DNA of 24,000 nt from Nocardia terrae (lineage in GTDB: Bacteria; Actinomycetota; Actinomycetes; Mycobacteriales; Mycobacteriaceae), in NCBI RefSeq assembly GCF_009760405.1, contig NZ_WRPP01000010.1, positions 250,711-274,710 of the forward strand, in the 5' to 3' direction. The stretch's first letter is position 1; every line of letters begins with the position of its first letter. The translations under genes and the position numbers were made by a program. The notes under the pieces are model-generated. The model ran no database searches. It was given only the letters and a program-made list of their open reading frames with translations, and had not been told where the DNA came from. Below, piece after piece: positions 6,090 to 23,347 of this stretch.

Positions 6090-6168
6090 GCGCTGATCGA
6101 ACCGACCAGCGCAGCGGGGCGGAAGGTCCAGTGGCAGTATCGGTCTGAGGTTGACCGAACGTCCTGCA
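6090..6168 (+). repeat. Interspersed ~80-nt structured repeat, copy A
   Basis: gcgctgatcgaaccgaccagcgcagcggggcggaaggtccagtggcagtatcggtctgaggttgaccgaacgtcctgca. By hand alignment, about 8 mismatches in 79 nt versus copy B and about 9 versus copy C. Confidence 0.85.
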
Positions 6169-6176
6169 TCGCCGGT

Positions 6177-6621
6177 TACAAGATGTCAACCGCGGGGATG
6201 GTGTGGTAGCGGCGGCTGGCGGCGATCGACACGGTGGCGACCAGAACCGCCAGCACCAGCCCGGTGCCGAGGGCGACCACAGGTGGGGTCCCTGCCAGTC
6301 CAAGGCCAGTAGTACGACGCTGGCTGCGAGCCACAAACACAGCCGTGAGCGGTCCGGATGTCCGATGCGGTCGGATTCGATGAGTGTCAGTACCAGCAGG
6401 AACACCACGACCGGCAGGGTCAGAGCGAGACCGGCCACCCGGTGGGCGACCTGATGGCCGTCATGGCTGCCGCCGAGGGCGGCGACGGCGGTTTCGAGGC
6501 CGGCGCCGAGGGCTGCCAGTGCCGCGAGGCTCGAGATTCGACGGCCCGAACTCTTCCGCGTTGCCCAGGTCGGAGAGTGACCGGCGTGTCCCCGTCGGTA
6601 ACGATATGGACACGCGACCAT
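6177..6621 (-). pseudogene. Small multi-TM membrane protein gene, apparently frameshifted near its 3' end (or a sequencing error)
   Basis: ORF 5950..6621 encodes TM-like segments (LALTLPVVVFLLVLTLI, LCLWLAASVVLLAL), then turns into a Trp/Pro/Arg-rich stretch after about 6290. A neighbouring frame continues with a clean TM helix, PVVALGTGLVLAVLVATVSIAASRRYHTIPAVDIL, to TAA at 6177-6179, just before repeat A. N-terminus is unclear. Confidence 0.3.
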
Positions 6622-6828
6622 TTTGGCGGGGGGCGCACCAGCAATAGCTGGCGTGAATCGGATAGTGCTGGAACGTCATTCGAGGCCGTGGCCAGCGGGA
6701 TGTGGCGGGTGCCACGGTCCGGCCATTCGGTGATGGGCATCTCATTTGACTGTCGGGACGTCCGTCCCTTGTGAAAACCTCCGCAAGAAGTTTGCTAGAT
6801 GTTTACTGATTGCGGAGAGGTGTTCTGG

Positions 6829-7476
6829 GTGTCTGTGCGACAAACGGCGACTGCTGGTGCTGGAGTACTGGCCACAGTCCTTCTGGTAGGGGTTTGGGCG
6901 GAAGGTTCGGCGAGTGCGGATGGGGTTGCTGACAAGTATCGGCAGACCGTGACCGATGACGGTTGGACACTGGCGGTCACCAAGACGGGGGAGAATCTGG
7001 ATCGGTGGCCGAACCTGGCGGGATCTCCGGTCAGCCGGGAAGGATTCGTCAGTCTCAAGGCGATCGCCGAGGTTACCGGCGCCGGAACGCAGCCCGTTAC
7101 CGGCGGCACCGTCACCCTCGGTTACCAGATCGGGTGCGCGGTCGATGTCTCCAACGGGCTGACTCTCGGGATGGGGTTGTCGATCGGTCCGAACGCCAGC
7201 GTCACCATCTCGCAATTCCCGGGAGTGACGATCGGCGGGCAGGCCTCGGTGAACCCGAACATCTCCACCACCCTGCGACCCGGTGCGATCTCCACGGTCG
7301 CGTTCGGTTCGAAACCGCTTGCCGCGTCGAGGGGTTCGATCACCGCCGAGCAGGTCGAGATCCGCGTGGACGCCTGCGCGGGACCGGTGACCATCCGCTC
7401 CTACGCCACCGCCGCGATCTCGACCCCGACCGCCGATCACAACATCACCGTCTACGGCGACGCCATCTGGCTGTGA
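6829..7476 (+). CDS. MspA-family mycomembrane porin
   Basis: Motifs resemble M. smegmatis MspA: GTVTLGYQIGCAV (MspA GTLELGYQIGFPW), ISQFPGVTI (MspA NLFPGVSI), C-terminal ITVYGDAIWL (MspA TTYGEPWNMN). Signal peptide VSVRQTATAGAGVLATVLLVGVWAEGSASA. GGAGAGG at 6814-6820 favours GTG 6829 or 6835 over ATG 6799. Confidence 0.85.
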   Translation: MSVRQTATAGAGVLATVLLVGVWAEGSASADGVADKYRQTVTDDGWTLAVTKTGENLDRWPNLAGSPVSREGFVSLKAIAEVTGAGTQPVTGGTVTLGYQIGCAVDVSNGLTLGMGLSIGPNASVTISQFPGVTIGGQASVNPNISTTLRPGAISTVAFGSKPLAASRGSITAEQVEIRVDACAGPVTIRSYATAAISTPTADHNITVYGDAIWL

Positions 7477-7542
7477 AACACAGCCGTGCCCCACTCCTTT
7501 CACCTCACCTCGTAGTGCGTTAGTCAAGGAAGGCCGACATCG

Positions 7543-7830
7543 ATGACCGACACCATTTCCGGCAGCACGACCGCGAGGACTCCCGACACGAAATCTGCTC
7601 CGCAACCATTGAATCCGACCGTTGTCGCGTTCGGTGGTCTGGCGCTGGGACTCGTGCTGTTGATCGTGGCCTTCGCGAATCTGAACCAGATGCCGGGCTG
7701 GGCCGACGATTACGGTTCGATCCTCGTCTATATGGCATTCTTCCTCTACATGTCGATCGCCGGCCGGCTGACCTGGTGGGGCATCGACACACTGCGCGAC
7801 CAGGCCACGGCCCGCCGAGGCCGCCGGTGA
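7543..7830 (+). CDS. Small 2-TM membrane protein (95 aa), hypothetical
   Basis: AAGGAAGG lies 8 nt upstream of the ATG. Two hydrophobic helices: VVAFGGLALGLVLLIVAF and ILVYMAFFLYMSIAG. The stop overlaps the next gene's start (GTGA). Confidence 0.7.
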   Translation: MTDTISGSTTARTPDTKSAPQPLNPTVVAFGGLALGLVLLIVAFANLNQMPGWADDYGSILVYMAFFLYMSIAGRLTWWGIDTLRDQATARRGRR

Positions 7831-10169
7831 GCATCCCGTTCACGCGCCTGTCCGCGCTCGGATTGGCCACGGGCGCAATCGGTCTCGGGATCGGCGCGCT
7901 GGCGCTCGCGGGGTCACCAGCCGCGGACGCGCAAGGTTATGTGCCCTGCGAGCAATGGCAGGCCATGCATCCGGGCTGGCCCTGCATCGATGTCCCGACC
8001 CCGCCGCCCGGCGGACCGCCGACGATCTCGACCCCGCCGCCGCTGCCATCACAGACTCCCGGCGTGCCGTCCCAGCCCGGCGGCGGCGGGGGAATCGGCG
8101 CAGGCGCGCTCACCCCGCCGTCCATCGCGCCGGGCACCGGAACACCGATCGTGCCCATCCCGGCACCTCCAGTGGAATCCGGCGAGGTGTCCGCGCCAAC
8201 CCCGGACCCGTCGCATTCGCCGGCCCCGGTCGCACCGGAAGATCCTGCGAGGCATCCGCACCCGGCCGGTGATACCCCCGCGCCCGAGCCGACCGACACA
8301 CCGGTTCCGCCGCCCGTACTCGCCCCGAGCCCGTCGCGGGACGAAGCGCCGGCCGCGCCGAGTCCGGCGCGTGAGGGCGGTGACGGACGAATCCCGTGGC
8401 TCCTGCTCGCAGGAGCGGGGGCCTTCCTGGCGCCGGCGCTGCGGCTGCGTGGCGGTAGCGCCGCGCGACAGCTGACGATCAACAAGCCCTGGGACGGCGG
8501 GCAACAGACCTTCATTCTGATGACCGACCCGAGCGCACCGCGCGAATACCGTTTCCCGCAAAACATTCCGCCCGGCGGCCGGTTGCGCAAGAATCCCGAT
8601 GGATCGATCGACGTACTCGACAACGCGGGAGCCGTTGTCTCGCACACGAAACCGCCCTGGGCCTACGACGCCCTGGGACGGCCCGTCCGCACGTGGTACG
8701 ACATCGAGGACGACACCATCGTCCAGCACATCGAACCCGACAGCGAGACGGTCTACCCGATCCTGGCCGACCCCGACACCGTGCCGCAGTGCACGATCAG
8801 CGATGACGGCCACGGTGGCACCACCACCTCGAGCAGCCACGGCGACGGCAGTGTCTTCAGCGCCCACGACGACGGGCACGGCAACGTCTCGACCGCCACC
8901 TCCACACCCGTACCCGGCAGTGGCGGCACCATCGACACCCGCATCGACAACGCCGACGGCACCACCAGCGACGTCCGGTCGGTCCCGGACGGAAACGGCG
9001 GGGTGACGACCTGGACCCGCAACCCCGACGGCTCACACACCGTCCAATACCCCGACGGCACGTTCTACCAGGAACCCGCCGCGGGCTCCGACAATCCCAT
9101 CCACGTGCAAGGACAGGTCACCGACACCGGAATCGACTCCCAATTCACCGACGGTTCCGGCAACGTCACCACCGCCACGACCACGACCACACCCGGAAAC
9201 ACCGACCTACACACCGAATACGAGACCCCGACCGGGCACGCGAGCAGTGACAGTCAGGTCACCGCCGGGAATTCGATCATCACCAAAACCCTCGACCAGG
9301 ACGGTGTTCCGATTGTCACCAGGTCGGTCCCGAATGCCGACGGCACGGTGTCCACACACTCGATCGTGGCGCAGACCACCGACGACCAGGGCAATGTGGT
9401 CTATCTGCAAGACGACGGCACACTGTTCACCCCCGATGTCGGTGACGGGACATCGGCCACCACGACCGTGGCCGACGACGGAACGATCACCATCGTGTCC
9501 TCGGACCTTTCGAAAATCGTCCTGTTCGCCGACGGTTCGGCAGCGGCATTCGACAAGTTCGGCAACAAGATCGACAAAGCCATCGACAAACAACTCCAAC
9601 GATGGCCACAGCGTGCCGCGCAGGGCGGCGCGGCGGCCACGAAGTTCCTCGTCGAGCGTCAACTCTCCTCGGTGCTGAGCGCGATGGAAAATCTCACTGC
9701 ACAGCTTTCCCGCGGGCAGGCCGTGATGAACGTCAGCACCGATTTCGATGCCGCATGGCTCGCGGCGTCGCGCTCGGCTTCGCAGAGCGCCGCGGCGGCC
9801 GAGGCGCTCGCGCCCGCGGCGTCGCGGCTCGGATTGGCCGCGAAGGTCCTCGGCAAGAGCGCGATCATCCTCGCCCCGCTCGGCATGTATTTCGATATCA
9901 AGCAGGGCGTTCGTCCGGGGCAGGCGATCACCTCCGGCACCGCGGGTGTCGCGGCCGGCATCCTCGCAGCCCCCGCCATCGCCGCAGGCGTAGCAGCGGC
10001 GGGGCTCGCAGCTCCGGCGATCGTCACAGGTGCCGCGGTGATCGGAGTCAGTGTCGGTGTCTACCTCGGCACCAAATGGCTGTACGGGCAGATGCCGACT
10101 GGCTGGCAAGATGGAATCGATGGTGGACTGCGATCGGTATGGAGCGGAATAAAAGGAGTGTTCTCATGA
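7827..10169 (+). CDS. Large (~780 aa) secreted/membrane protein: signal peptide, Pro-rich linker, TM segment, PWAYDALG domain, DG(S/T)-rich beta-repeat region, C-terminal small-xxx-small hydrophobic domain
   Basis: GTG 7827 is coupled to the upstream stop. Segments: signal-like LSALGLATGAIGLGIGALALAGSPAADA; Pro-rich region about 7995-8385; TM IPWLLLAGAGAFLAPAL; degenerate DG-containing repeats about 8800-9580; Ala/Gly zipper-like hydrophobic tail 9858-10166. No enzymatic motif recognised. Confidence 0.75.
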   Translation: MSIPFTRLSALGLATGAIGLGIGALALAGSPAADAQGYVPCEQWQAMHPGWPCIDVPTPPPGGPPTISTPPPLPSQTPGVPSQPGGGGGIGAGALTPPSIAPGTGTPIVPIPAPPVESGEVSAPTPDPSHSPAPVAPEDPARHPHPAGDTPAPEPTDTPVPPPVLAPSPSRDEAPAAPSPAREGGDGRIPWLLLAGAGAFLAPALRLRGGSAARQLTINKPWDGGQQTFILMTDPSAPREYRFPQNIPPGGRLRKNPDGSIDVLDNAGAVVSHTKPPWAYDALGRPVRTWYDIEDDTIVQHIEPDSETVYPILADPDTVPQCTISDDGHGGTTTSSSHGDGSVFSAHDDGHGNVSTATSTPVPGSGGTIDTRIDNADGTTSDVRSVPDGNGGVTTWTRNPDGSHTVQYPDGTFYQEPAAGSDNPIHVQGQVTDTGIDSQFTDGSGNVTTATTTTTPGNTDLHTEYETPTGHASSDSQVTAGNSIITKTLDQDGVPIVTRSVPNADGTVSTHSIVAQTTDDQGNVVYLQDDGTLFTPDVGDGTSATTTVADDGTITIVSSDLSKIVLFADGSAAAFDKFGNKIDKAIDKQLQRWPQRAAQGGAAATKFLVERQLSSVLSAMENLTAQLSRGQAVMNVSTDFDAAWLAASRSASQSAAAAEALAPAASRLGLAAKVLGKSAIILAPLGMYFDIKQGVRPGQAITSGTAGVAAGILAAPAIAAGVAAAGLAAPAIVTGAAVIGVSVGVYLGTKWLYGQMPTGWQDGIDGGLRSVWSGIKGVFS

Positions 10170-10357
10170 GACGGCTGTTCGGAAAACTGGCAATATGGTT
10201 TGCCTATTTCCTCAACCCGTCGTCCTCCCCCTCTCCACTGGATGCCGAAGACTTGGTCGAGAATCGACGCCAATCGGTGAAAGAGCGTCTTGCCGCATCC
10301 GAACGCCTATTGGACGAATACCGGGCAGCCCGCGGACTCCCACCCAAGCGCCGCTAG
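10166..10357 (+). CDS. Small (63 aa) protein translationally coupled to the large protein; possible cognate partner or immunity-like factor
   Basis: The ATG overlaps the upstream stop (ATGA), and AAAGGAG lies 7 nt upstream. N-terminal hydrophobic segment LFGKLAIWFAYFL, followed by a charged helical tail. Confidence 0.5.
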   Translation: MRRLFGKLAIWFAYFLNPSSSPSPLDAEDLVENRRQSVKERLAASERLLDEYRAARGLPPKRR

Positions 10358-10394
10358 ATCGCGGCGATCGAGTCACGGGAAGACACCTAGCCGC

Positions 10395-10480
10395 GACCCG
10401 GGCGGTTCGACCCCGCCAGCGTGACGCCACCGAAGATCAACGAGCCGAATATATCCCGTTGAGCCATCCGCTCATGGCGC
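10395..10480 (+). repeat. Degenerate copy (E) of the ~80-nt repeat, adjacent to the IS110 remnant
   Basis: Shares ccagc...cGAAGATCAAc...tgag at the same offsets as copy C, and lies a similar distance (about 113 vs 118 nt) from the gggtccgggat start of IS homology. Otherwise strongly diverged. Confidence 0.35.
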
Positions 10481-10528
10481 CCCTTCAGGTCAAGACCTGG
10501 TTCGGGTGTCGGGGTTACTCTGTTTGGT

Positions 10529-10950
10529 GGGTCCGGGATATGGCTTGTCCGAAGGATCGGTGTGCGGGTTGGAGCCGGTCGCGCTGGAGTGTGTAGTCGT
10601 TCCCGATTGCCCTCCCAGGCCTGCTAATTCGTGTCGGTCCTGGTCTGTGAGCATGCGTGTGTAGACGCTGTTGGACAGGCGGCGCTTGAGTGCTCGCATT
10701 GCTTCCATCGAGGTCTTGCCTGCGAGTCTTTTGCGGTCGTAGTAGGCGCGCCCGGGGTGCGGTGGCGGAGCTGGACAACGGCCATGATGTGGAGCACCCG
10801 GTTGATCTTGCGGTTGCCAGAGCGGGAAAGTCGATGCCGTTTCTGGTCTCCGGAGGAGGCGTCCAGCGGTGCGGTTCCGTTCCAGGACGCGAACCGGTCG
10901 CGGGTCGCGAAGCGGTGGATATCGCCAGTGTCGGCGAGAAGTCTTGCGGC
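10529..10950 (-). pseudogene. IS110-family transposase remnant (C-terminal Transposase_20 region only; truncated and frameshifted)
   Basis: Collinear with 23357..23790. It is near-identical over about the first 70 nt (gggtccgggatrtggcttgtccgaaggatcggtgtgcgggttggagccggtcgcgctggagt). Reading needs two frames (...FASWNGTAPLDASSGDQKRHRLSRSGNRKINRVLHIMAVVQLRH / GRAYYDRKRLAGKTSMEAMRALKRRLSNSVYTRML). Homology stops abruptly at about 10950, so the catalytic N-terminal half is missing. Confidence 0.8.
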
Positions 10951-11046
10951 GCTGGTCGTTGCCGCGGACGACTGACATCCGACTCGTCGACGTGTCCCGG
11001 CTGAAGATCAATGACGTGCGGCATCTCGGGGCTGAATCGGGCGATG

Positions 11047-11874
11047 TTATCGGCCCGTGCTGATCCCGAACATCTCGTGCGCCACGCCGAAGCCGAGGTC
11101 GTGGACCAGGCGGCGTTTCCAGGGGCGGGTGGCGATGGCGTGGGTCAATCGGCGGGTCGTGCGTGGTTGTTTCATGATGGTCTCAGCCAGTTCCCTCGCT
11201 CGGGGAAGCAGCTTTGTCGGGGGGAGAACCTCATTGACCAGTCCGAGTTCGAGCGCTTCCCGGGCGTCAATGGGCCGACCGGTGTAGAGGTGATAGGACG
11301 CGCGCTTGGTGCCGAGGATCTCCTGCAGGGTCAGTTGCTGGCCGTCGCCGGGTGCGGTTCCCACCAGGAAGTGCGGATCGGTGATGGTGGCTGTTTCTGC
11401 TGCCAAGGTGATGTCGCACAGCAGCGCGAATTCCGTGTGCGCGATGCTCGGGCCGTTGATCGCTGCGATCGTAGGGATGTCGATGCCGAAGACGAAGTTC
11501 TCCATCAGCTTGGTCGCGTCGTAATAGCCGTGCTCGTAACCGAAGTCCGGTGGGAAGGGGCCGGAGGTCGTCCTTCGCGCGGATTCAGCCGGTGCCGGGT
11601 CCGGAGCGCCGAGCCACCGGTCTCCGGTTCCGGTGAGGATGAGCACCTCGTTCTCCGGGTCGTTGCCGATCTCGAGCCATGCCTGTGCCCACGCGTTGTG
11701 AACGGCGAAATCGAACTGCGCGGGACCGTCATCGGTGTGCATCCGCAGCTCGAGGATGCCGTCTCGGCGTTGCATGGCGAAATACCTCGAGTACTTCTGC
11801 GCGTAGTCGTCGAAGTCGGGGCGTGGTACGAAACCGCCTGTGCGCGTGCGCCATTCGTCCAGACTGCCGGGCAT
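11047..11874 (-). CDS. Enoyl-CoA hydratase/isomerase (crotonase) family protein
   Basis: Crotonase-fold pattern: VLILTGTGDRW..., IPTIAAINGP...H.EFALLCDITLAAE, YHLYTGRPIDAREALELGLVNEVLP. GAAAGG lies about 9 nt upstream of the ATG. Confidence 0.85.
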   Translation of the reverse strand: MPGSLDEWRTRTGGFVPRPDFDDYAQKYSRYFAMQRRDGILELRMHTDDGPAQFDFAVHNAWAQAWLEIGNDPENEVLILTGTGDRWLGAPDPAPAESARRTTSGPFPPDFGYEHGYYDATKLMENFVFGIDIPTIAAINGPSIAHTEFALLCDITLAAETATITDPHFLVGTAPGDGQQLTLQEILGTKRASYHLYTGRPIDAREALELGLVNEVLPPTKLLPRARELAETIMKQPRTTRRLTHAIATRPWKRRLVHDLGFGVAHEMFGISTGR

Positions 11875-12399
11875 GATGTTGACCTTTCGTCGCCGATCCG
11901 GGCTGGGTAACCCGTAAGTCGGACGATACGAGTACTCATGCTCTGTCGCCAGGTCGACAAGGTGGCGCCCGTAACGAAATGACGACTACGGCAATGGTTG
12001 TCGCGTAACGTGGCGGGACGAGTTGATCTCGCCGGGCCAGGGCGCGTTGTCGCCCCGCTGGGAGCGTCGCACGCGGCGCGCAGTAAAGCAGAGCCGCTGA
12101 CTGGATACGTGGCAATACAATGGCTTTCGAGCCCCAACAGGATGCGCTCAACCGCGCGAATCATGTTGGGGGGTGCGAGCGGTACGCCTCGTGACGAAAG
12201 AGAGCAACCCCTTGTTGATCGTAACGAAAACAGTCACGAAACGGCGATTGCGACTGACCTACCGCGCGATCACGTCGACGGAGAAGATCGAAGCCGAACA
12301 TTCCGGCCAAGGTACAACCGAGAGCCTTCCGCAGCTTTGCGTGCTGGCTCCTAGCCTAGGTTGCCCAGGACAAGCAACGCACTGCCCTAGCTGCGAGAC

Positions 12400-12478
12400 G
12401 CGCTGATCGAACCGGTCAGCGCAGCGGGGCGGAAGGTCCAGTGGCGGTACAGGTCCGAGGTTGACCGAAAGTCCTCCA
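12400..12478 (+). repeat. Interspersed ~80-nt structured repeat, copy B
   Basis: gcgctgatcgaaccggtcagcgcagcggggcggaaggtccagtggcggtacaggtccgaggttgaccgaaagtcctcca. The shared left flank TAGCyGyGAGrCGC with copy A suggests the unit starts about 12 nt earlier. Confidence 0.85.
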
Positions 12479-12621
12479 GCGGAATGCAGGGCGTGGTCAG
12501 ATCTCGAGTCGGATCGGTTCGCTGACCGGGCCGCGGGCAGGTCGACTCCGTCATCGTAGGGGTGATTGACGAGGTGGAGCGTTTTCTCTCAATTGTGCTG
12601 TGCTCGTGAGACTCTGGAGGG

Positions 12622-13365
12622 GTGGGGATTCTGAACGTGCGCATCGATGACCGCTTCGGTTACCCGTGTGTGTGGCTGTGGTCGCCCGACCCAGATCTGG
12701 ACCGCGTGTTACGCGAACGACTCCTCGACCGCGACCCGCCATGGTTCGGTGGCCGCCTCGAATTGGAGGTGTTTCGCCGAGGCTGGAACGGTAGATCGCG
12801 GTCGGAGTTTCGCCTGTTGCTCGAATCGCTGTCCGAGCAGCAATTGCTGACCGGGATATCGGTCAGCTACTTCGTGGACGCTCGAACCGCGGTGCTCGGT
12901 GTCGATGGTGGCGGCCTGGACACTTTGATGTCGATGCTCGACGACGCACTGACCAAACCCCTTGTGGAACTCAGTTTGCGGCTGTTGAGTGCCGAGCGGG
13001 TTGTGATCTACGACGTACCAGAGGTCTTGGAGGAGATCTACGCGGACGGTTTGCGGGATCTGGGTCTCTCATGGACTGTCGACACTACAAGGCGAGATCA
13101 GGAACTGGCCCGACGGCAACAGCAGAAGAGAAGGCACGGTGGGGGATTCAGGATGTCGGCACCGCCTGGAATCGACATGATCGTTGCAGTCAGCGCCACC
13201 GAAGACGCGCAGACGCTCACCACTCGGATACTGAACGGATTCATCGATCGATACCGTGTGAAAAGACTCGACATCCAGTTGGTAGACGGAACCACACTCG
13301 CGATCGAGGACGCGACACCAGCTTCCATCGAGCCCCTGCTGGTTCGGATCGACAAGTTGTCGTAG
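12622..13365 (+). CDS. Hypothetical protein (247 aa), no recognised domain
   Basis: Single long ORF with coding-like third-position GC and no competing ORF. The start is ambiguous: GTG 12622 sits directly after GGAGG, and GTG 12637 is the alternative. Confidence 0.55.
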   Translation: MGILNVRIDDRFGYPCVWLWSPDPDLDRVLRERLLDRDPPWFGGRLELEVFRRGWNGRSRSEFRLLLESLSEQQLLTGISVSYFVDARTAVLGVDGGGLDTLMSMLDDALTKPLVELSLRLLSAERVVIYDVPEVLEEIYADGLRDLGLSWTVDTTRRDQELARRQQQKRRHGGGFRMSAPPGIDMIVAVSATEDAQTLTTRILNGFIDRYRVKRLDIQLVDGTTLAIEDATPASIEPLLVRIDKLS

Positions 13366-13593
13366 CTGCCCCGTTCCGTTCGGCGATGCAGATCCGAGCT
13401 TGGGGACGCAGCTGGAGCTGCGACGAATCCCTTGGAAACATCAACCAGCAGAGTCTATCTCGGATCCTGAGCGAACCAGTGCACGTCAGCGCCTTCACCC
13501 GCGTCGAATTCGAGGGTTCCGGCGTGTCTACGCAGGGCGACGCCGTGCGGCTGACCGCTGCTCACGCGGAGGCCCCGGCTGGAGCCGCCCGTC

Positions 13594-15740: not shown

Positions 15741-16498
15741 GCGGTTCTCCCTTCGGCCTGGGCCGCGGCGATCGCGGATTCAAGCGCCGTTCCGAGACCG
15801 CGACGCGGTTTGGGCGGCGGGGCCGCGAACGAACCGGCCCGGTGCGGCCCGGACGCGAGACCGACGACGGCCTCGGCGAACCGGATGCCCGCCCCGATGC
15901 CGTCGACGACGGGAACCGGGATCTCGGCCATGACATCGCGGGCGAGGCCGGCCAGCGGCGCACCGGCGAGGATCACGACATCGGCACCGTCGTCGGCGAC
16001 CGCGCGCTGTGCCAGCTCCACGAGTGGTGCGCGGAAATCGTCCTGGACGGAACCGATTCCGCGCAGTGCCTGTTTGATCGACCGGATCGAGGCGAGGCGA
16101 TTCCCGAACCCGAAGTGCTCGACGCATTCGCGATACCACGGCGTGATGCGGTCCGAGATCGCGATGATCGAGAAGCGCCGGCCCTGCAGCGCCGCCGCAC
16201 ACAACGCGGCCTCGGTGATCCCGATGACGGGCACGTCCACGAGCTCTTTGAGAGCGGGCATGCCCGGATCGCCGAACGCGGCGACCACCACACCGTCCAC
16301 ATCGCGATGCTCGGCGATCAGCTCCGCGACGGCCTGCGCGGCGAGCAGCGCCTCGAACCTGGTCTCGATGTACTCGACTCCGTGAGCGGCCGTGCGCACG
16401 AGGAGTCCCGTCGTCGGTGCCACCGAGCGCATCGCCTCGGCACGGATCAACTCGGTGACGTCGTCGCTGATGTTGGGGTTGACGACGAGAAGTCTCAT
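15737..16498 (-). CDS. Asp/Glu/hydantoin racemase family protein (hydantoin racemase-like)
   Basis: MRLLVVNPN N-terminus, two conserved Cys contexts (GITEAALCAA and ...), about 250 aa, and genetic coupling to the hydantoinase. GAGGGA lies 5 nt upstream of the ATG. Confidence 0.8.
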   Translation of the reverse strand: MRLLVVNPNISDDVTELIRAEAMRSVAPTTGLLVRTAAHGVEYIETRFEALLAAQAVAELIAEHRDVDGVVVAAFGDPGMPALKELVDVPVIGITEAALCAAALQGRRFSIIAISDRITPWYRECVEHFGFGNRLASIRSIKQALRGIGSVQDDFRAPLVELAQRAVADDGADVVILAGAPLAGLARDVMAEIPVPVVDGIGAGIRFAEAVVGLASGPHRAGSFAAPPPKPRRGLGTALESAIAAAQAEGRTA

Positions 16499-16513
16499 GA
16501 AGATCCCTCTCTC

Positions 16514-17158
16514 TCAGATGGTTTCGGGGTATTGCGCGCGGTACTTGTCGATGTGCTGCGCCGACTGCGCCGCCGCGCGCTCGGGGTCGCCGCTCGCGAT
16601 GGCGGCGAGCAGGTCGCGGTGCTCTTGCACGAGCTCGGGCAGGTTGGTGACGTGGCGGAAGAGCCAGTGCATGCGACCCTGCAGCGGCTCGAGCGCCGTT
16701 CGGAGGAAGCGGTTGTCGGCGATCCTGGTGATCTCGTCGTGGAATTCGCTGTTGGCCCGATGCGCCTCGTTGATGCTGCCGCGGGACAACGCGTCCACGG
16801 CGCGGTCGAGAATGCCCTCGAGTCGTGCGAGGTCCTCGGCGGTGGCGCGCTGGGCGACAAGCGAGCAGGCGAGCACTTCCAGTGAGTGCCGCACTTCGAA
16901 CAGATCCGCCACATCCTTCTCGCTCAGCTCCGCGACCACCGAACCGCGTCCGCGTTCGGTGACCAGGCCCTCCTGGACGAGCATCCGCAGCGCCTCGCGA
17001 ACCGGGAGCCGGGAGACATCGAACTCGGCGGCGAGGTCGCGTTCGACGAGCCGCGTGCCCGGGGCGTAGTGGCCTTCGAAGATGCGCGTCCGAAGCCTGT
17101 CGCGGACCACCTCACGCAGCGGGCGATCTCGCTGTGGCGCTTCGACGGGCGGTGTCAT
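16514..17158 (-). CDS. GntR-family (FadR/FCD subfamily) transcriptional regulator
   Basis: N-terminal wHTH (LVERDLAAEFDVSRLPVREALRMLVQEGLV) plus a helical FCD-like C-terminal domain. ATG 17158 has GAGGAGAAG upstream. Confidence 0.9.
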   Translation of the reverse strand: MTPPVEAPQRDRPLREVVRDRLRTRIFEGHYAPGTRLVERDLAAEFDVSRLPVREALRMLVQEGLVTERGRGSVVAELSEKDVADLFEVRHSLEVLACSLVAQRATAEDLARLEGILDRAVDALSRGSINEAHRANSEFHDEITRIADNRFLRTALEPLQGRMHWLFRHVTNLPELVQEHRDLLAAIASGDPERAAAQSAQHIDKYRAQYPETI

Positions 17159-17213
17159 CACGTCTTCTCCTCGAGTCGGGCTTCTGATTCGATTTCCATT
17201 CGAGCACACCGGG

Positions 17214-18566
17214 TTACACCGGCAGCCGCCTGCTGTAATCGAGAGTGAGGACGCTGCCGCCCATGAGGATCGCAGCACCCACGAAGTACAGCAGCGCGCC
17301 CGTGTAGCCGCCCGTCGCTCCCACGATGAATCCGACGGCGATCGGCGTCACGAAGCCCGAGATATTGCCGGCCAGGTTCATCGCGCCGCCCAGGACTCCG
17401 GCGTTCGTACGGCCGCCGAGGGTTGCCGGAACAGACCAGAACAGTCCCACCCAGCGCAGGAAGAACAGCACCAACGACAGCAGCGCCACCGCGGCGATGG
17501 GCTTGCTCACGATCGTCACGCCTACCAGGCCCATGACGACGAACAGGCTCGAGACACCCAGCAACGAGCGCATGACGACATTGGTGTGGAATCCCTTGAC
17601 GCGGAGCCGGTCGGCGAGCAGGCCGCCGAGGATCTCCCCGACGAAGCCCGCACCGAAGATCACGAACGTCGACCAGCCGATCGAGGCGAGCTTGAAGCCC
17701 TTGGCCTCCGACAGATACAGCGGCCCCCAGGTGAGCAGGCCGTAGAACACGCCGTTGAAGCCGAGCCAGCCCAGGCACATCGCCCAGAACGAGCGGAACT
17801 TCAGATACGGCAACAGGCCACGGCGGGTCGTGCCGCCCTCGGCGAGCGCCGCCTCGTCCTCGGCCCGGTGCGACGCCTCGATATACGCGGCCTCGGCCTC
17901 GTTGACTCCCGGGTGCTGACGCGGGTTGTCCCGCACGTACCACCACACCAGCGCCCCGAGCAGCGCCGTCACGACGCCGGCGATGATGAACGCCATCCGC
18001 CAGCCGCCGAATGCCGCGATCAGTCCCGTCACGAGGATGCCGCCGACGCCCGCGCCGAGCGGAGCACCGGCGTCGAGAATCGTTGCCCCACGGCCACGTT
18101 CCTTGGAATGCATCCATATCGCATTGAGCTTCCCGCCCGCGGGCATCACGCCGGCCTCGGTGACGCCGATGCCCATGCGTGCGATGAACATGCTGACGAA
18201 CCCGCCGGCCAACCCCGAGGCCGCGGTCGCGGCACCCCATCCGACACACGAGGCCGTGATGACCTTGCGCGGGCCGAAGCGGTCGATCAGTAAGCCGACC
18301 GGCACCTGCATGGCGGCATAGGACCAGAAGAACGCTGAGAGCAGAAGGCCCACGAGAGTATGCGAGAGCCCGAAGTCCTTCTGGATGAGGGGGAGCGCGA
18401 CCGAGATCGAACCCCGGTCGACATAGTTGATGGCCACGAGAAACAGCAGCAGGACGAACAGCTTCCACCGGACGTTCGTCCGCGCGACCGGGGCGATGTC
18501 CACGGTGTGCGGTGGTAGGGCATTGGCAGCAGTGCCTTTGCCCGAGGTCTCCTCTTGAAGGGACAT
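17214..18566 (-). CDS. MFS transporter, anion:cation symporter (ACS)-like
   Basis: 12 TM segments. MFS signatures: LLIDRFGPRKV (loop 2-3) and DRLRVKG. ATG 18566 is preceded by GAAGGAGGAG 5 nt upstream; ATG 18584 is an upstream alternative. Confidence 0.9.
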   Translation of the reverse strand: MSLQEETSGKGTAANALPPHTVDIAPVARTNVRWKLFVLLLFLVAINYVDRGSISVALPLIQKDFGLSHTLVGLLLSAFFWSYAAMQVPVGLLIDRFGPRKVITASCVGWGAATAASGLAGGFVSMFIARMGIGVTEAGVMPAGGKLNAIWMHSKERGRGATILDAGAPLGAGVGGILVTGLIAAFGGWRMAFIIAGVVTALLGALVWWYVRDNPRQHPGVNEAEAAYIEASHRAEDEAALAEGGTTRRGLLPYLKFRSFWAMCLGWLGFNGVFYGLLTWGPLYLSEAKGFKLASIGWSTFVIFGAGFVGEILGGLLADRLRVKGFHTNVVMRSLLGVSSLFVVMGLVGVTIVSKPIAAVALLSLVLFFLRWVGLFWSVPATLGGRTNAGVLGGAMNLAGNISGFVTPIAVGFIVGATGGYTGALLYFVGAAILMGGSVLTLDYSRRLPV

Positions 18567-18640
18567 CAGCTCCTCCTTCAACATGGGGAAAGGTCCGTCC
18601 GGCTCGTGCGCGGCCGTCCTGGGAGGCAAGTAGAGAATAT

Positions 18641-18664
18641 CTTGGGATCCCGCAGTGGGATTCC
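18641..18664. promoter_or_regulatory. Candidate operator, copy 1 (cTTGGGATCCCgcagTGGGATtCC)
   Basis: Contains the 8-bp palindrome GGGATCCC plus the half-palindrome TGGGATTCCA. Lies in the divergent MFS/FAH intergenic region and is repeated 59 nt downstream. Confidence 0.45.
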
Positions 18665-18699
18665 AGGATCGTAAGTGCACGTCAGGCCGCAGTCAAGAC

Positions 18700-18723
18700 T
18701 TTGGGATCCCAATGTGGGATCCT
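18700..18723. promoter_or_regulatory. Candidate operator, copy 2 (tTTGGGATCCCaatgTGGGATCCt)
   Basis: Same bipartite motif as 18641-18664: TTGGGATCCC-N4-TGGGATyC. Confidence 0.45.
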
Positions 18724-18872
18724 ATCGGAATGCTGCTGGGAGAAGTGGGCAGAAGCGCTGATCGCGGCTCTGCGGAAACGACTGGAGGGTTCTCCATTAC
18801 TCACTCGCTGAAAAACGCCGTGAACCGCTCGCCACAGTTCACGGCGCCGTCGATCCATCCGGGAGTCCAGTC

Positions 18873-19727
18873 GTGAAGCTGCTGCGGGTAGGGGCCAAGG
18901 GTTTCGAAAAGCCCGCGGCCATCGATGATCAGAGCGTGCTGCGCGACCTGTCGTCCGTTACCGGCGACATCGACGGGCAGCTGCTCGGCGACCCGGTCGC
19001 GCTGCAAACCGTCCAGAGCGCACTGGCCTCGGGCACCCTGCCCGAGCTGGATGCCGACCGGATCGGCGCTCCGATTGCCCGGCCCGGCAAGGTGATCGGA
19101 ATCGGGCTCAACTACACCGACCACGCCGCCGACATCGGCGCGGCCATTCCCGAGCGACCGGTGGTGTTCCTCAAGCCGGGCACCACGATCAACGGACCGT
19201 ACGACCCCATCGAACTACCGCGCGGCAGCGAGGCCACCGATCACGAGGTGGAACTGGGCGTGGTGATCGGGCAGCGGCTGCGCGATTGCGCCGATCCCGT
19301 CGCCGCGCTGGGGGCGGTCGGAGGGTATGTCACCGCCAACGACATCACCGAGCGCAGTCGTAACGCGGGGGAACCGACCTGGGCGAAGGGGAAGTCCTAC
19401 GACACCTTCACACCGATCGGTCCGTGGCTGGTGACGCCGGACGAGGTCGCCGAACCGCAGTCGCTGAGCCTGCAGCTGTGGGTCAACGGCGAACGGCGGC
19501 AGTCGAGTACGACCCGGAACATGGTCGCCGGGGTCGGTGAGCTGCTGGTGTACCTGAGCTCGCTGATGACGATGGAACCGGGCGATCTGGTGCTGACCGG
19601 AACGCCCGGGGGCGTCGCGGCCGGCAGGCTGGAACCGAAACCGTATCTGCGCGACGGGGATGTCGTCGTCGCGGAGGTCGCCGGCTTGGGGCGCCAGCAG
19701 ACCTTGGCCACCGGCGTGCGTGGGTAG
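18873..19727 (+). CDS. Fumarylacetoacetate hydrolase (FAH) family protein
   Basis: FAH-domain pattern: GIGLNYTDHA, HEVELGVVIG (metal-binding E/E/D context), KGKSYDTFTPIGPWLVT, GDLVLTGTPGGV. GTG start with GGGAG 8 nt upstream. Confidence 0.9.
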   Translation: MKLLRVGAKGFEKPAAIDDQSVLRDLSSVTGDIDGQLLGDPVALQTVQSALASGTLPELDADRIGAPIARPGKVIGIGLNYTDHAADIGAAIPERPVVFLKPGTTINGPYDPIELPRGSEATDHEVELGVVIGQRLRDCADPVAALGAVGGYVTANDITERSRNAGEPTWAKGKSYDTFTPIGPWLVTPDEVAEPQSLSLQLWVNGERRQSSTTRNMVAGVGELLVYLSSLMTMEPGDLVLTGTPGGVAAGRLEPKPYLRDGDVVVAEVAGLGRQQTLATGVRG

Positions 19728-19807
19728 CGATCCCGAAAGGCGCTCCGCTTCGGGCCAAATACGGAGTGGGGTTCTGGGGCTAGCCTGTGTGTCGGGTCCG
19801 GGTTGCA

Positions 19808-19880
19808 CGCTGTCCGAATCGGACGGCGTCGCGGGGCAGAAGATCAAGTGGCCGTGGCGATCTGACGTCCGCGAACGCAC
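19808..19880 (+). repeat. Interspersed repeat, diverged copy D
   Basis: The cgctgtccgaatcggacggcg hairpin replaces the gcgctga..tcagcgc hairpin while pairing is preserved. It is followed by gcggggcagaagatcaagtgg, which matches copy C (gcggggcggaagatcaagtgg). Confidence 0.55.
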
Positions 19881-19919
19881 TGAACTGCCGAGTGGCGCAC
19901 GTCGCAGGCCCTGCTGTGG

Positions 19920-21107
19920 TCACCGGTTGACGGCCAGCACTGCGGCGAGACCGTCTTGCAAGTCCTTGACGAACTGTTCGGGAACCTCCAGCGACGGGAA
20001 ATGGCCGCCGGTTTCGGGCGCGTGCCATCGGACGATCTGACGGAATCGTTCCTCTGCCCACGGGCGTGGGCACTTCTCGATGTCGTGGGGATACATGCTG
20101 AGCGCCGACGGGACGTCGACCCGAAGGTCAGGGTCGAACGCGTTGATGCCGCCGTGGCTTTCGGAGTAGATGCGGGCCGACGATGCGCCGGTCCGTGTCA
20201 ACCAGTACAGGGTCACGTTGTCGAGAACGCGATCCACGGAGACAGTCTCGAATGGGCTGTCTTCGGTGTCGGTCCACTCGGCGAACTTGTCGAGGATCCA
20301 GGCGAGAAGCCCGACCGGAGAGTCGACGAGTGAGTATCCGATGGTCTGCGGTCGGGCCGCCTGAAGCTTCGCGAACGCCGCCCGGGGCCCCTCCCAGAAA
20401 TCCCGGGTTGCCTCGACCCAGGTGCGATCGGCCGCCGATAGCCCGTCCGTTGTCAATCCGGGCGGTGCCTGTGGGGTGAGCGTGTGGATACCGAGAACAT
20501 GCTCCGGAAACCTGGCGCCGAGGACCGTTGTGATCACCCCTCCCCAGTCACCGCCGTGCGCTACGAACTCGGTGTAACCGAGCCTGTCCATCAGTTCCAC
20601 CCAGGCGGTCGCGATCTTTCCGATTCCCCACCCGGTGATCGCCGGCTTCTCGCTGTAGCCGAAGCCTGGCAGCGACGGAATCACGACATGGAACGCCGGT
20701 GCGCCCGCATCTTTCGGATCCGCCAGTTCGTCTACAACATCGACGAATTCGGCAATGCTGCCCGGCCAACCGTGCGTCACGATCAGGGGAGTGGCGTCCG
20801 CGCGCGTGGACCTTCGGTGCAGGAAGTGAATGCCCAGGCCATCGATGGTCGTGCGGAACTGGCCGATCTGGTTGAGGCGCTCTTCGAACGATCGCCAGTT
20901 GTACCGGGTGCGCCAATAGTTCACGAGATCGACGAGATCGGCGAGCGGAACGCCCTGCTCCCATCGGCGAGGACCGGGCTCGGCACGATGGACCGTCTCG
21001 GTCTCCGGTAATCGCGCCGTGGCCAATCGCGTGCGCAGATCGTCGAGTTCGGCGTCGGTCGCGTGGGCTTCGAATGCTTGAACGTCGACGTGGCCGAGTG
21101 CGGACAT
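19920..21107 (-). CDS. Epoxide hydrolase (microsomal-EH type: N-terminal EHN domain plus alpha/beta hydrolase)
   Basis: Motifs: DAELDDLRTRLATARLPE...YWRTRYNWRSFEERLN...IHFLH (EHN domain) and HGWPGS oxyanion motif. ATG 21107 is preceded by AGGAGG. Confidence 0.9.
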   Translation of the reverse strand: MSALGHVDVQAFEAHATDAELDDLRTRLATARLPETETVHRAEPGPRRWEQGVPLADLVDLVNYWRTRYNWRSFEERLNQIGQFRTTIDGLGIHFLHRRSTRADATPLIVTHGWPGSIAEFVDVVDELADPKDAGAPAFHVVIPSLPGFGYSEKPAITGWGIGKIATAWVELMDRLGYTEFVAHGGDWGGVITTVLGARFPEHVLGIHTLTPQAPPGLTTDGLSAADRTWVEATRDFWEGPRAAFAKLQAARPQTIGYSLVDSPVGLLAWILDKFAEWTDTEDSPFETVSVDRVLDNVTLYWLTRTGASSARIYSESHGGINAFDPDLRVDVPSALSMYPHDIEKCPRPWAEERFRQIVRWHAPETGGHFPSLEVPEQFVKDLQDGLAAVLAVNR

Positions 21108-21385
21108 GAGACCTCCTGATTGTCGCGGAACCACCCGAGGTGACCAATCCTGCTGGGATACCCGAATTTCGCTTCGCTAACGAGTTGACGACAAACGTCA
21201 CAGAACGCTTTCGGCCGTGCGGTGGAAGCAGCAGGTACCGACCGAGGTCATCTGGGCCCTCCGAATGCACGGCATTGCCGATGAGCGTGTCAACGTATGC
21301 GCTGCCCGAAGCCCCTCATAGGCTCCGCGTCGAGCAAAGTCACGCAAGTCCGACCAACGGGAAGTGCGCCGGAAAGGATCCGACG

Positions 21386-21913
21386 ATGAGCGCAGGGGCC
21401 AAGCCGATTCGGCAGACCGAAGAGTTCCGGCGGCTCCAACACGACGAGCGTTTCCGAGCCTGGCTGCGGATGCAGGAAGCTGCGTTGGAGATCGAGTTCA
21501 TCGTCACCGATGTGCCAGAGCTGAACAACCTGGACGCGCTATGGTCCCGGGATGGGCTCGCCATCGTCGAAGAGGATGCGCTGCGCCGGTGGAGTTCCGA
21601 GCAGCAGGCGTTCACCGGCGATGAGTTCCCGATGGCGATGCGGTTCTGCTACTTCATCGGTGAAACGTTCCGCCGGGAAGTCGAGGGGAACTGGGTCGCC
21701 CTACCGCCGCATCCGCCGACGCGGGGGATGCGCTCGGTCATCGACGCCGAGTACCGGGCCCGCTTCTACGACCCCGCCGACATGCTCGGAATCGCCCTGC
21801 TGCGTCGCACGGGCGATCAGCTCTCCAAGATCTTCGGCTATGCCGTCGAGGCTCACCGCGAGTGGGTAGAGGCAGGTCGTCCGGCGCGGGGACACTGGCC
21901 CGGATCGGCGTAG
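21386..21913 (+). CDS. Hypothetical protein (175 aa)
   Basis: ATG with GGAAAGGA 7 nt upstream and coding-like composition. No motif recognised. The upstream part of ORF 21140.. lacks coding character. Confidence 0.55.
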   Translation: MSAGAKPIRQTEEFRRLQHDERFRAWLRMQEAALEIEFIVTDVPELNNLDALWSRDGLAIVEEDALRRWSSEQQAFTGDEFPMAMRFCYFIGETFRREVEGNWVALPPHPPTRGMRSVIDAEYRARFYDPADMLGIALLRRTGDQLSKIFGYAVEAHREWVEAGRPARGHWPGSA

Positions 21914-21935
21914 TTGAGGGCTAAGTAGTTGCAAG

Positions 21936-22430
21936 ATGGACCCAAACTCTGTTGGGGACACTGCGCATGAACGAGACGATACGAGGGGCAGTGTGGGTTT
22001 TAGAACTGTGGTGATCTCTGAGGATCTGCCGTACGCGTTGCCGACGTGGTTCGTCGAGGCCCATCCCGAGCTGCACTTCGGCAACGGCGTGGACGGATCG
22101 TCTCGCCTACCGATCGCGAGTCGCTTTGAGCGAAAGTTCTATGGCTCCAAGGACGATCCGCTCTTTCTCGACCTGCAGCGGGTGTTGAACGAAACTGCGT
22201 CATGGAGACACCATGTCGAGCTGATCCTGTTCCACGAGTGCGGTGGGATTACCAAGGTGCTGGTCACGCGCGACCGGATACGTATGGCCGAACCCACGGG
22301 CTGGTCCGAAGTCGACGAGATCGAACACTGGTTCTGCGGCTGCTCATTCGACACTCAAATTGAGCCCGCGCGCTCCGAACCCGAGATCGGGAAGGCCGTC
22401 AGCCCACAGGTCGGACCGGACGAAGAGTGA
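21936..22430 (+). CDS. Hypothetical protein (about 145-164 aa)
   Basis: ORF in a locally lower-GC stretch. Start is ATG 21936 or GTG 21993 (GAGGGG 4 nt upstream). No motif recognised. Confidence 0.5.
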   Translation: MDPNSVGDTAHERDDTRGSVGFRTVVISEDLPYALPTWFVEAHPELHFGNGVDGSSRLPIASRFERKFYGSKDDPLFLDLQRVLNETASWRHHVELILFHECGGITKVLVTRDRIRMAEPTGWSEVDEIEHWFCGCSFDTQIEPARSEPEIGKAVSPQVGPDEE

Positions 22431-22544
22431 CGATCCGAATCTGGGGCTTTGTCAGCACGCGCGACCTCCAGCACGGACACCGCACGATAATGCCGCTATG
22501 CCGCTCTGACCGATTCGGCCTGAGTGTGTGCCACGATCGGGTCC

Positions 22545-23183
22545 ATGGATCCACATGTGGCCGCCGAAGCGACTGTCGAGGCATGGAAGTCGCGGCTGGT
22601 CACGCTTGCGGACTGCCCGGAGTACGTGTTCGTGGACACGCCACAGGAGTTGATCGACGAGCATCGTGCCCGGCTAACCGCCTTCAACGGTTGTAGCGAC
22701 GCGGAAATCGAGGCAGTAGAGGCGCAGATCGGTGGACGGTTCCCCGCGGTGTTTCGCCAGTACCTGTTGCAGATGGGTGAGGAGTGCGGTGGCCTGTTCC
22801 GTGGCAGCGACCGAGCAGGCATACGCGGCTTCGACCGGCTGCGCGCCGACGCCCGCGAGATCGTCGACGAGGTCGGTGCTGGGTGGAGGCTGCCGACGGA
22901 TGCGGCCATCGTTCTCACACACCAGGGCTACATGTTCGACTATGTGCGTGCGGTCGGAGGGTTCGACACTCCGGTCATGCGGTGGACCGACGGGAAGCCG
23001 AACGAGGACACTCAGGTGGCGATCACGTTCGCACACTACGTCGACGCGCATCTGCAACTGATGGAGCACAACGCCCGCAGCACCCGGGCGCAAGGCGGCT
23101 ACTACCTCACCCTGCACCCTGGCGGTGGGCGACAAGTGCACCCCGCCCGCAACTCTAGCGACCGCCCACTCGATTCTCGGTGA
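22545..23183 (+). CDS. SMI1/KNR4 (SUKH-1) family protein, immunity-protein-like
   Basis: The central EIEAVEAQIGGRFPAVFRQYLLQMGEECGGLF matches the characteristic SUKH pattern (i..vE..lg..lP..y..fl...nG). Start is ATG 22545 or GTG 22524. Confidence 0.7.
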   Translation: MDPHVAAEATVEAWKSRLVTLADCPEYVFVDTPQELIDEHRARLTAFNGCSDAEIEAVEAQIGGRFPAVFRQYLLQMGEECGGLFRGSDRAGIRGFDRLRADAREIVDEVGAGWRLPTDAAIVLTHQGYMFDYVRAVGGFDTPVMRWTDGKPNEDTQVAITFAHYVDAHLQLMEHNARSTRAQGGYYLTLHPGGGRQVHPARNSSDRPLDSR

Positions 23184-23222
23184 AAGGCAAACCGGCGCCA
23201 ACGCACCACATTGCCGCGGACG

Positions 23223-23301
23223 GCGCTGACCGAACCGGCCAGCACAGCGGGGCGGAAGATCAAGTGGGGGTGTCGGTCTGAGGTCGACCGAACGTCCTGC
23301 A
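23223..23301 (+). repeat. Interspersed ~80-nt structured repeat, copy C (abuts the IS110 3' flank)
   Basis: gcgctgaccgaaccggccagcacagcggggcggaagatcaagtgggggtgtcggtctgaggtcgaccgaacgtcctgca. Confidence 0.85.
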
Positions 23302-23347
23302 CTGGCTCCCCTCTATGTCAACCCCGCGGAGTGGGGTTGGGGTTAGC

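Follow-up and report, generated by a model that had tools for sequence, protein, structure and literature searches.

What is a repeat of little more than one hundred nucleotides doing five times within 24 kb of one actinomycete genome, always between genes and always in the same direction? The question is raised by a stretch of 24,000 nucleotides from Nocardia terrae (NCBI RefSeq assembly GCF_009760405.1, contig NZ_WRPP01000010.1, C2:250711-274710), which is called the window in this study. The assembly has 9.3 Mb and 68% G+C, and the genome carries the label G000. An earlier note had described the repeat as a family of five copies, A to E, of about 80 nt each, with a 5' hairpin whose pairing was maintained by covariation. 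The results showed that the repeat is real and that the covariation is not, and that observation is thus partly confirmed. We believe, with a probability of about 60%, that the repeat, here called the unit, is a non-coding component of a gene-cassette array whose segments would be joined by site-specific recombination. From comparison of sequences, we infer that a Xer-like recombinase of 304 amino acids, named Int here, acts on the sites of the array.

The units are clustered and co-oriented

The five copies lie at the positions reported, and copy E is a genuine member of the family, diverged and full-length. The single orientation and the intergenic placement were also borne out: every copy in the window is on the + strand between genes, and each comes after the end of a + strand open reading frame (ORF). 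Iterated nhmmer searches gave a total of 46 copies in the 9.3-Mb genome. They form approximately nine clusters, and within each cluster all copies share one direction. Examples are the clusters at C1:517-521 kb, C1:1633-1641 kb, C1:1982-1990 kb, C16:604-628 kb, C18:329-343 kb, and C17:631-634 kb. Two further units lie just beyond the end of the window, at ~24709 and ~24949. Another 95 copies were found in regions of four other Nocardia genomes (G001, G003, G013, and N. otitidiscaviarum), and units were present in 36 of the 150 other Nocardia species searched.

A ~30-bp site bounds each unit

The proposed length of ~80 nt was too short, because conserved end motifs extend the element to ~110 nt. 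The motif AACG[CT][AC]C-N5-TGCCG, missed previously, stands immediately ahead of each unit and again at its end, as direct repeats with the copies in register. In tandem unit pairs, such as those at C17:633220/633314 and C1:521224/521316, one end motif is common to both units. The centre-to-centre distance of a unit has its mode at 91 nt, and shorter units of ~57-60 and 80 nt occur. Nearly all solo occurrences of the motif are inside or beside arrays and in the orientation of the array.

The complete site is AACGCAC-N5-TGCCG(A/C)-N5-GYGC(GTT), approximately 30 bp, and consists of two imperfect inverted 12-bp arms with a 6-bp centre. In a matrix of 106 sites, the outer arms, GCAC on the left and GYGC on the right, are symmetric about the 6-bp TGCCG(A/C). 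A perfectly palindromic site, CGTACGCACA/TGCCGA/TGTGCGTACG, was found in another Nocardia genome. In the units, the 5' site shares its right arm with the GC-rich palindrome, of which it is the first arm. A scan of the genome with the site matrix gave 107 matches, compared with 24 for the reversed matrix, and recovered the same strand-coherent arrays, for example, runs of - strand matches at C1:1.982-1.995 Mb (14) and C16:603-628 kb (11). Core sites of tyrosine recombinases (lox/FRT/dif type) have inverted arms round a crossover region of 6-8 bp. The symmetric inverted arms, the 6-bp centre, and the joints at TGCCG described below suggest a core site of this kind.

Shared gene segments begin and end at the sites

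The evidence for exchange comes from BLAST comparison of the arrays of this genome with each other and with those of other Nocardia. Many segments are 80-92% identical between arrays, and their neighbours are unshared. Ten segments, shared with three other Nocardia species or within the genome, were inspected; every one has TGCCG(A/C) at its start and AACGYMC-N5-TGCCG at its end. For shared segments with a length of 250 bp or more (30 segments, 120 ends), 17% of the ends were no more than 10 nt from a predicted site, compared with 0.8% of random points. Two segments that adjoin each other at C1:1886.5-1887.9 kb in the present genome occur in two different species, each beside different units. 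At the joints, the left arm goes with the upstream segment and the sequence past the centre goes with the downstream segment. This is the pattern expected from reciprocal exchange inside TGCCG. The strand-coherent sites, together with segments that are shared across arrays and species and end at sites, are those of an integron-like array.

A segment of ~135 bp with no ORF, lying between a site and a unit, was found in three copies (C1:518019-518162, C1:1888019-1888151, and C2:275498-275641), two of which have 98.5% identity. Beside the unit, this is a second type of non-coding module.

A cassette-borne recombinase accompanies the sites

The genome has 17 Phage_integrase matches. Two of these are copies of one gene, and both lie inside arrays: an intact copy of 304 amino acids, Int (C17:627666-628577), and a frameshifted copy (C1:1632155-1633183). 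The duplicated DNA is 1030 bp long and has a site motif at both ends, the upstream site being inverted in the present genome. The same segment layout is repeated in N. otitidiscaviarum and three further Nocardia genomes, and one genome with no Int gene has a 200-bp Int remnant inside an array. With the XerC/XerD models, whose cut-offs are 330-335 bits, Int reached 119-120 bits. The integron-integrase models TIGR02249 and NF011946 match only residues 219-283, with scores of 46 and 44 bits (cut-offs 265 and 435).

Relatives of Int with 70-89% identity are encoded in many actinobacterial genera. A scan of species-representative genomes gave 507 loci, and 80 were analysed, from Nocardia, Lentzea, Kutzneria, Kribbella, Micromonospora, Actinoplanes, Intrasporangium, Humibacillus, Ornithinimicrobium, and many metagenome-assembled genomes. 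The gene in most of the 80 loci is preceded by TGCCGC, 60-100 nt from its start codon, and its stop codon is directly followed by TGCCGA. A loose site pattern occurred 158 times on the strand of Int and 17 times on the opposite strand. With Nocardia and both gene-adjacent sites set aside, the counts were 110 and 11, and 31 of 75 loci had two or more extra co-oriented sites. The density of sites in the Int loci was 166 per Mb, compared with 12.7 per Mb across the present genome.

We suggest that Int, carried on its own site-bounded segment of ~1 kb, would recombine any two sites. Between direct sites, recombination would release the intervening DNA as a circle, which could then re-enter at any other site. 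Genes would in this way be gained, moved, and lost as modules, similar to those of integrons. The 91-bp unit is too short to form a circle easily and probably travels with a neighbouring gene segment. The weakest step of the proposal concerns the interior of the unit (the palindrome with a fixed A.C mismatch, the GGAAGATCAAC box, and the second stem), whose most likely role is accessory or insulating. It may act as a binding platform that favours recombination at the sites of the unit, or as a barrier, insulator, or terminator between cassettes.

Several observations weigh against the cassette-array reading. The genes of the arrays are not co-oriented: 42 point with the array and 42 opposite, as counted with a codon-usage gene caller that mis-strands some genes relative to Pfam, and all orientation counts in this study are rough. 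Some segments hold entire operons, unlike integron cassettes; in the window, for example, one segment holds a 5-kb minus-strand operon. Conservation lies in the centre of the site and not in the inner 5 bp of the arms, which vary; dif and lox sites show the opposite, and to our knowledge there is no precedent for directly repeated sites just 91 bp apart. With decayed centres in unit B and in the 3' site of unit A, several copies in the window are probably inert. Int, often broken, was found in 24 of the 150 Nocardia species and units in 36, and both were found in only nine; the two most unit-rich relatives have no intact Int. At the ends of the largest (50-kb) arrays, in a complete relative, no recombinase was found, and Int, where present, is internal to the array. 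Most arrays are thus recombinase-less, like the integrase-less arrays of integrons (CALINs), or are served in trans, or are fossils.

Around the intact Int gene (C17:625591-634280), the sites are on the - strand from 625.6 to 627.6 kb and on the + strand from 628.6 kb. This switch of polarity, with the inverted upstream site, looks like an inversion between two sites.

The unit shows pairing potential and no covariation

The folding of the unit was analysed in an alignment of 141 units from the present genome and from the arrays of G001, G003, G013, and N. otitidiscaviarum. The covariation claimed for the hairpin was not recovered. For a hand-named four-helix structure in 50 full-length units, the covariation score was 0.132 against a shuffled mean of 0.135, and 341 of 500 column shuffles scored at least as high. 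In the same test, 73.6% of the cells were paired, compared with 74.3% in shuffles. RNAalifold predicted no pairs on the 50 full-length units, and a separate run on both strands also gave none. The folding z-scores of whole units ranged from -2.2 to +0.3 on either strand, within about two standard deviations of shuffles. The scan of the whole window against Rfam gave nothing at E up to 1, in line with the failure of the earlier note to place the repeat in a known Rfam family. In these tests for a structured RNA family, Rfam gave no match at that threshold, covariation equalled that of shuffles, and RNAalifold found no pairs.

The 5' stem is paired in 82.8% of cells, compared with 25-51% when the partner was slid, and this good pairing arises only because both arms are conserved. 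The commonest form of the 5' hairpin retains an A.C mismatch (69 of 117 copies), and changes are mainly one-sided. The 5' hairpin is therefore a conserved imperfect palindrome, and its pairing potential is real. The T-A, T.G, and C-G series in copies A, B, and C, previously read as compensatory change, is ordinary variation within this conserved palindrome. The second stem, GGTC-n7-GACC, was indeed found in A, B, and C. Selection on pairing, either as RNA or as single-stranded DNA, had been suggested; nothing shows it, covariation being absent. The earlier interpretation is thus partly supported: the dense, co-oriented, intergenic repeat family holds, and selection on structure is unsupported. 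An assignment of the folding strand from wobble pairs was attempted and dropped, as the indications were contradictory (a conserved top-strand A.C in helix 1, and frequent top-strand G.T in helices 3 and 4).

The end motifs, the palindrome, the GGAAGATCAAC box, and a GATC are the peaks of information content. Between species, the interior is conserved about as strongly as the sites, which argues for a function. Subfamilies of units were noticed at C1:1984666-1984733, C18:336781, C18:343423, C1:1636219, and C17:631479. In one subfamily, the second half is a long perfect hairpin, AAACGGTCGGCCC ... GGGGCCGACCGGTTT, with a GAAGATC box in its loop; the box is retained though the surrounding stem is swapped. 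Another subfamily has GAAGATCAACG and then CCCCGAGATCATCTCGGGG.

An IS110-family element targets the site centre

An insertion sequence (IS) of the IS110 family, ~1405 bp long, occupies 23304-24000 on the - strand and continues to ~24708 past the window (PF02371, 2.8e-21; transposase gene 23348-24496, - strand). It sits between unit C and the next unit. Another intact copy, at C1:1634150-1635603, is 95.5% identical to it. The intact copies are joined as ...CCTGCACT/GGCTCCCC ... CTTACTA/GCCGCG, inside the TGCCG centre of the 5' site of a unit. A truncated copy on the - strand at 10476-10960 consists of the right end and the 3' part of the transposase gene. It lies at the 3' site of unit E, is 81-87% identical to 23357-23779, and has its PF02371 match at C2:261463-261669. 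A solo left end (5996-6079, - strand) abuts unit A with the junction ...CCAAGTA/GCCGTG. It has 79% identity over 149 nt to the left end of the intact IS plus the junction (C2:275335-275481), and its junction type, ...TA/GCCGC, is the same as in both intact copies. The ORF at 5754-6080 before unit A is probably a remnant of the IS110 element rather than a gene. A solo right end (19763-19802, - strand) takes the place of the 5' site of unit D and parallels 23328-23365.

The genome has three PF02371 genes; all lie within arrays, and their junctions fall at a single base of the centre. The two intact copies, the truncated copy, and several solo ends are joined at T/GCCG, with the transposase antisense to the unit, as in a specialised IS110 element with a target repeat. 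We regard the element as a parasite of the cassette system; it inserts inside the TGCCG centre, always in one orientation. Its left end (C2:275207-275418; window 24497-24708) contains ATGCGGC and GTGCAGG, 56 nt apart, which equal the bases directly to the left and right of the insertion point, as the guide segments of a bridge RNA would. K-mer matches of this kind were no better than in shuffled sequence (325/500).

Alternative explanations

The units are short, GC-rich, palindromic, intergenic, multi-copy, and patchy among species, some are in tandem pairs, and most genomes with units lack Int. These features would suit selfish or structural repeats of the type of repetitive extragenic palindromes (REPs), bacterial interspersed mosaic elements (BIMEs), or miniature inverted-repeat transposable elements (MITEs), spread by themselves or by a transposase in trans, with the recombinase incidental. 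We consider this unlikely. The copies are confined to a few co-oriented arrays and are neither dispersed nor alternating. Terminal inverted repeats are absent. The end motifs of one copy resemble each other no more than those of different copies do, and their variable N4-5 is not the same at both ends of a copy, so there is no target duplication. The earlier note, too, had recognised no REP family in them, and the clustering, the common orientation, and these end features confirm that they are neither REP/BIME elements nor MITEs. The sole Y1 gene (RAYT/IS200-type, where RAYT stands for REP-associated tyrosine transposase; PF01797 at C20:100510) is on a contig with no copy. Such repeats would also leave unexplained the same joints in gene segments that have no unit, and the same sites around Int in genera free of units. 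It is somewhat less likely still that the joints were made by the RNA-guided IS110 recombinase, for which the units would be the preferred target, as REPs are for IS621, and that rearrangement between IS copies shuffled the DNA. Three transposase genes and at least four solo ends at the 5' sites of units, in one orientation and at one base of TGCCG, agree with this, as do ATGCGGC and GTGCAGG in the left end. Against it, those k-mer matches are at the level of shuffles (325/500), most joints have neither an IS nor a remnant, and the most unit-rich relatives have no IS110 gene inside their large arrays. The layout of the site is of the tyrosine-recombinase type, and the site follows Int, not IS110, across the phylum.

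Could the unit act as RNA, as a 3' untranslated region element, a terminator without a U-tract, or a small RNA that spread with upstream genes? The position of each window copy after the end of a + strand ORF would fit, as would the counts of the crude gene caller: 82 of 138 upstream genes are co-oriented and 82 of 137 downstream genes are convergent, as expected of a position past 3' ends. G.U-type pairs on the + strand are also common in the second stem. This explanation is nevertheless improbable. Neither covariation nor a consensus fold was found, the folding energies are ordinary, Rfam gave no match at E up to 1, and no T-run follows the hairpin. The orientation of units tracks the array, not the neighbouring genes, and an RNA would leave the joints at the DNA level unexplained. 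Co-oriented, structured repeats of attC-like length that separate accessory genes recall an ordinary CALIN with the units as attC sites, and we regard that as very improbable. The ends of a unit are direct repeats rather than an inverted R''/R' pair, with no GTTRRRY core. The recombinase reaches 46 bits against the cut-off of 265 of the integron-integrase model, in its last 64 residues only, and the genes are not co-oriented. We therefore retain the cassette array as the preferred explanation.

Units, sites, and cargo of the window

Over 94 nt, copies A (6078-6172), B (12376-12482), and C (23199-23303) have pairwise identities of 82-87%, and copy D (19803-19891) has 71-79% identity over 62 nt. 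Unit A spans 6078-6175 on the + strand, with the centre GCCGTG at 6080-6085, the palindrome at 6090-6112, and the GGAAGGTCCA box at 6121-6130. At its 3' end, the left arm GAACGTCCTGCAT (6157-6169) is followed by the degenerate centre CGCCGG (6170-6175); the position weight matrix (PWM) gave 14.6 bits for unit A. Unit E (10379-10475, + strand; nhmmer match C2:261098-261166) retains a hairpin variant, the GAAGATCAAC box, and an end motif at each end. Its 5' motif is GAAGACACCTA/GCCGCG, the palindrome variant is at 10400-10417, the CCGAAGATCAAC box is at 10430-10441, and the 3' arm is GCCATCCGCTCAT. Unit B (12375-12485, + strand) has the 5' arm CAACGCACTGCCCTA, a mutated centre GCTGCG at 12390-12395, the palindrome at 12400-12422, the box at 12431-12440, and a decayed 3' site. 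No PWM site of 9 bits or more was found at either end of unit B.

Unit D spans 19803-19902 on the + strand, with the palindrome variant CGCTGTCCG-AAT-CGGACGGCG at 19808-19828 and the box at 19837-19848. Its 3' site, GAACGCACTGAAC / TGCCGA (19886-19891) / GTGGCGCACGT, is intact and scores 32.7 bits. Unit C (23199-23303, + strand) has a 5' site with AACGCAC at 23200-23206 and TGCCGC at 23212-23217 (26.7 bits), the palindrome at 23223-23245, the GGAAGATCAA box at 23254-23263, and the 3' arm GAACGTCCTGCACT at 23290-23303. A solo site, GAATGCACGGCAT / TGCCGA / TGAGCGTGTC, lies at 21263-21292 on the + strand, between an epoxide-hydrolase gene (- strand) and the next + strand genes, and scores 21.6 bits. 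A second, weak solo site, CACCGCACGATAAT / TGCCGC / TATGCCGC, is at 22478-22507 on the + strand, just upstream of a SUKH/SMI1-KNR4 gene; its 13.4 bits are barely above the background range. With these two solo sites, the stretch from D to C would be three segments, the last of which is the SUKH/SMI1-KNR4 gene.

The arrays are lower in G+C than the genome, with ~0.64 in the window compared with 0.68 overall. The cargo of the window includes a peptide-modification operon, an MspA porin operon, a GntR-MFS-racemase-amidohydrolase operon, and the SUKH gene. At ~6306-6525 on the - strand, an ORF fragment matches the C-terminal part of LtrA alone (PF06772, 5e-7, below cut-off), and its frame continues through unit A. 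The fragment is probably a truncated pseudogene at the edge of a segment. The accessory cargo of the arrays includes six TY-Chap3 genes, five TetR genes, dehydrogenases, hydrolases, GNAT genes, and several DUFs. A SUKH/SMI1-KNR4 gene stands directly upstream of a unit both in the window (22524-23183) and in N. otitidiscaviarum (L001, 11689-12126), and DUF6301/6630/7691 genes and the six TY-Chap3 genes are among the array cargo of relatives. Some of the cargo may serve in immunity to toxins from other bacteria.

In the rough counts with the crude gene caller, the co-oriented upstream genes (82/138) and convergent downstream genes (82/137) amount to a weak tendency of 3' ends to face the unit. 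Replication direction was considered as the cause of the common orientation. In four complete genomes with dnaA mapped, ~12 loci were co-directional and 8 were head-on; large arrays are co-directional, though the tally is unconvincing, and this cause was rejected.

Comparison with known systems

The arrays share several properties with integrons: co-oriented arrays of sites, accessory genes, modules that recur across arrays and species, a recombinase of the tyrosine family, and many arrays with no recombinase gene nearby. The IS1111-attC group of the IS110/IS1111 family targets integron sites, and a specialised element of the same family likewise targets the sites described here. The differences are as clear. 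Here, the sites are of a double-stranded type of ~30 bp instead of folded attC hairpins, and no attI or Pc layout is seen. The recombinase has no IntI signature, and its gene is carried as a cassette instead of being fixed in a platform. The genes are in both orientations, and some segments carry several genes. By its scores, Int is not an integrase of the IntI type; the units have neither GTTRRRY nor a consensus fold like that of attC; and the segments are not mostly single ORFs co-oriented with the array. In a published survey, no complete integron was found in Actinobacteria (PMC4889954).

Polyimmunity loci adjoin XerC/D recombinases (PMC3482391). The rAID-1 clusters of Bacteroidales are described as having a XerD-like recombinase and integron-like intergenic repeats (10.1101/471110). 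Cargo of the immunity type is also present in the Nocardia arrays, where SUKH is upstream of a unit in two species and TY-Chap3 occurs six times. The link to a recombinase and the repeats were both seen here; SUKH, TY-Chap3, and DUF6301/6630 genes are a minority, and the genes are not co-directional. The rAID clusters differ in phylum, recombinase family, and repeat, and their recombinase heads a co-directional cluster. The Nocardia cargo is mainly metabolic and regulatory and lies on both strands, and the rAID text consulted does not describe joints at base resolution.

The pdif modules of Acinetobacter plasmids are gene modules flanked by XerC/XerD sites that mimic the host dif and alternate in orientation. 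Discrete gene modules with short Xer-type core sites, placed in varied contexts, are common to both systems. In contrast to pdif, all the array sites here are direct repeats, the dedicated Xer-like enzyme is far below the XerC/XerD cut-offs, and the host dif-like site (C20:234412) differs from the cassette site in both the arms and the centre. That site, CGCGCCGATAA-TGCACA-TTATGTCAAGT on the - strand, is the only dif-like site of the genome and is usable as a terminus marker for the fragmented assembly. Neisserial intergenic mosaic elements (NIMEs) are repeat blocks flanked by dRS3, which is a target of IS110-family recombinases. REP/BIME elements, NIMEs, and the units are alike as short intergenic blocks whose smaller bounding motif is a target of the IS110 family. 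The units differ in that they are not dispersed genome-wide, do not alternate in orientation, and have no RAYT linked to the copies, and in that the bounding motif also separates gene-sized segments that move between arrays.

Biological meaning

In the literature covered, which excluded most subscription journals, we found no description of the repeat, the site, or the recombinase system, and this absence is not proof of novelty. Beyond Nocardia, we tentatively suggest, at somewhat less than an even chance, a gene-capture system that extends across Actinomycetota. It would consist of a small, strongly conserved, cassette-borne Xer-like recombinase and ~30-bp sites of the form AACGCAC-N5-TGCCGM-N5-GYGC that link accessory genes into arrays, with the 91-bp double-site module of Nocardia in the role of attC and an RNA-guided IS110 element specialised on this module.

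If this is true, IntegronFinder-type tools, which search for IntI and attC, would miss such arrays. The homing of IS110 to the centre of the site would be a natural example of an RNA-guided recombinase with a defined, repeated target of 91 bp. The sites could serve as landing pads, and the recombinase and its site could be used as a compact pair for engineering Nocardia, Mycobacterium-related strains, and producers of the Streptomyces type. One enzyme of 304 amino acids and a site of 30 bp would provide a testable mechanism for the collection and reshuffling of accessory genes in large actinomycete genomes, and the cargo moved would include immunity-type genes, regulators, and enzymes.

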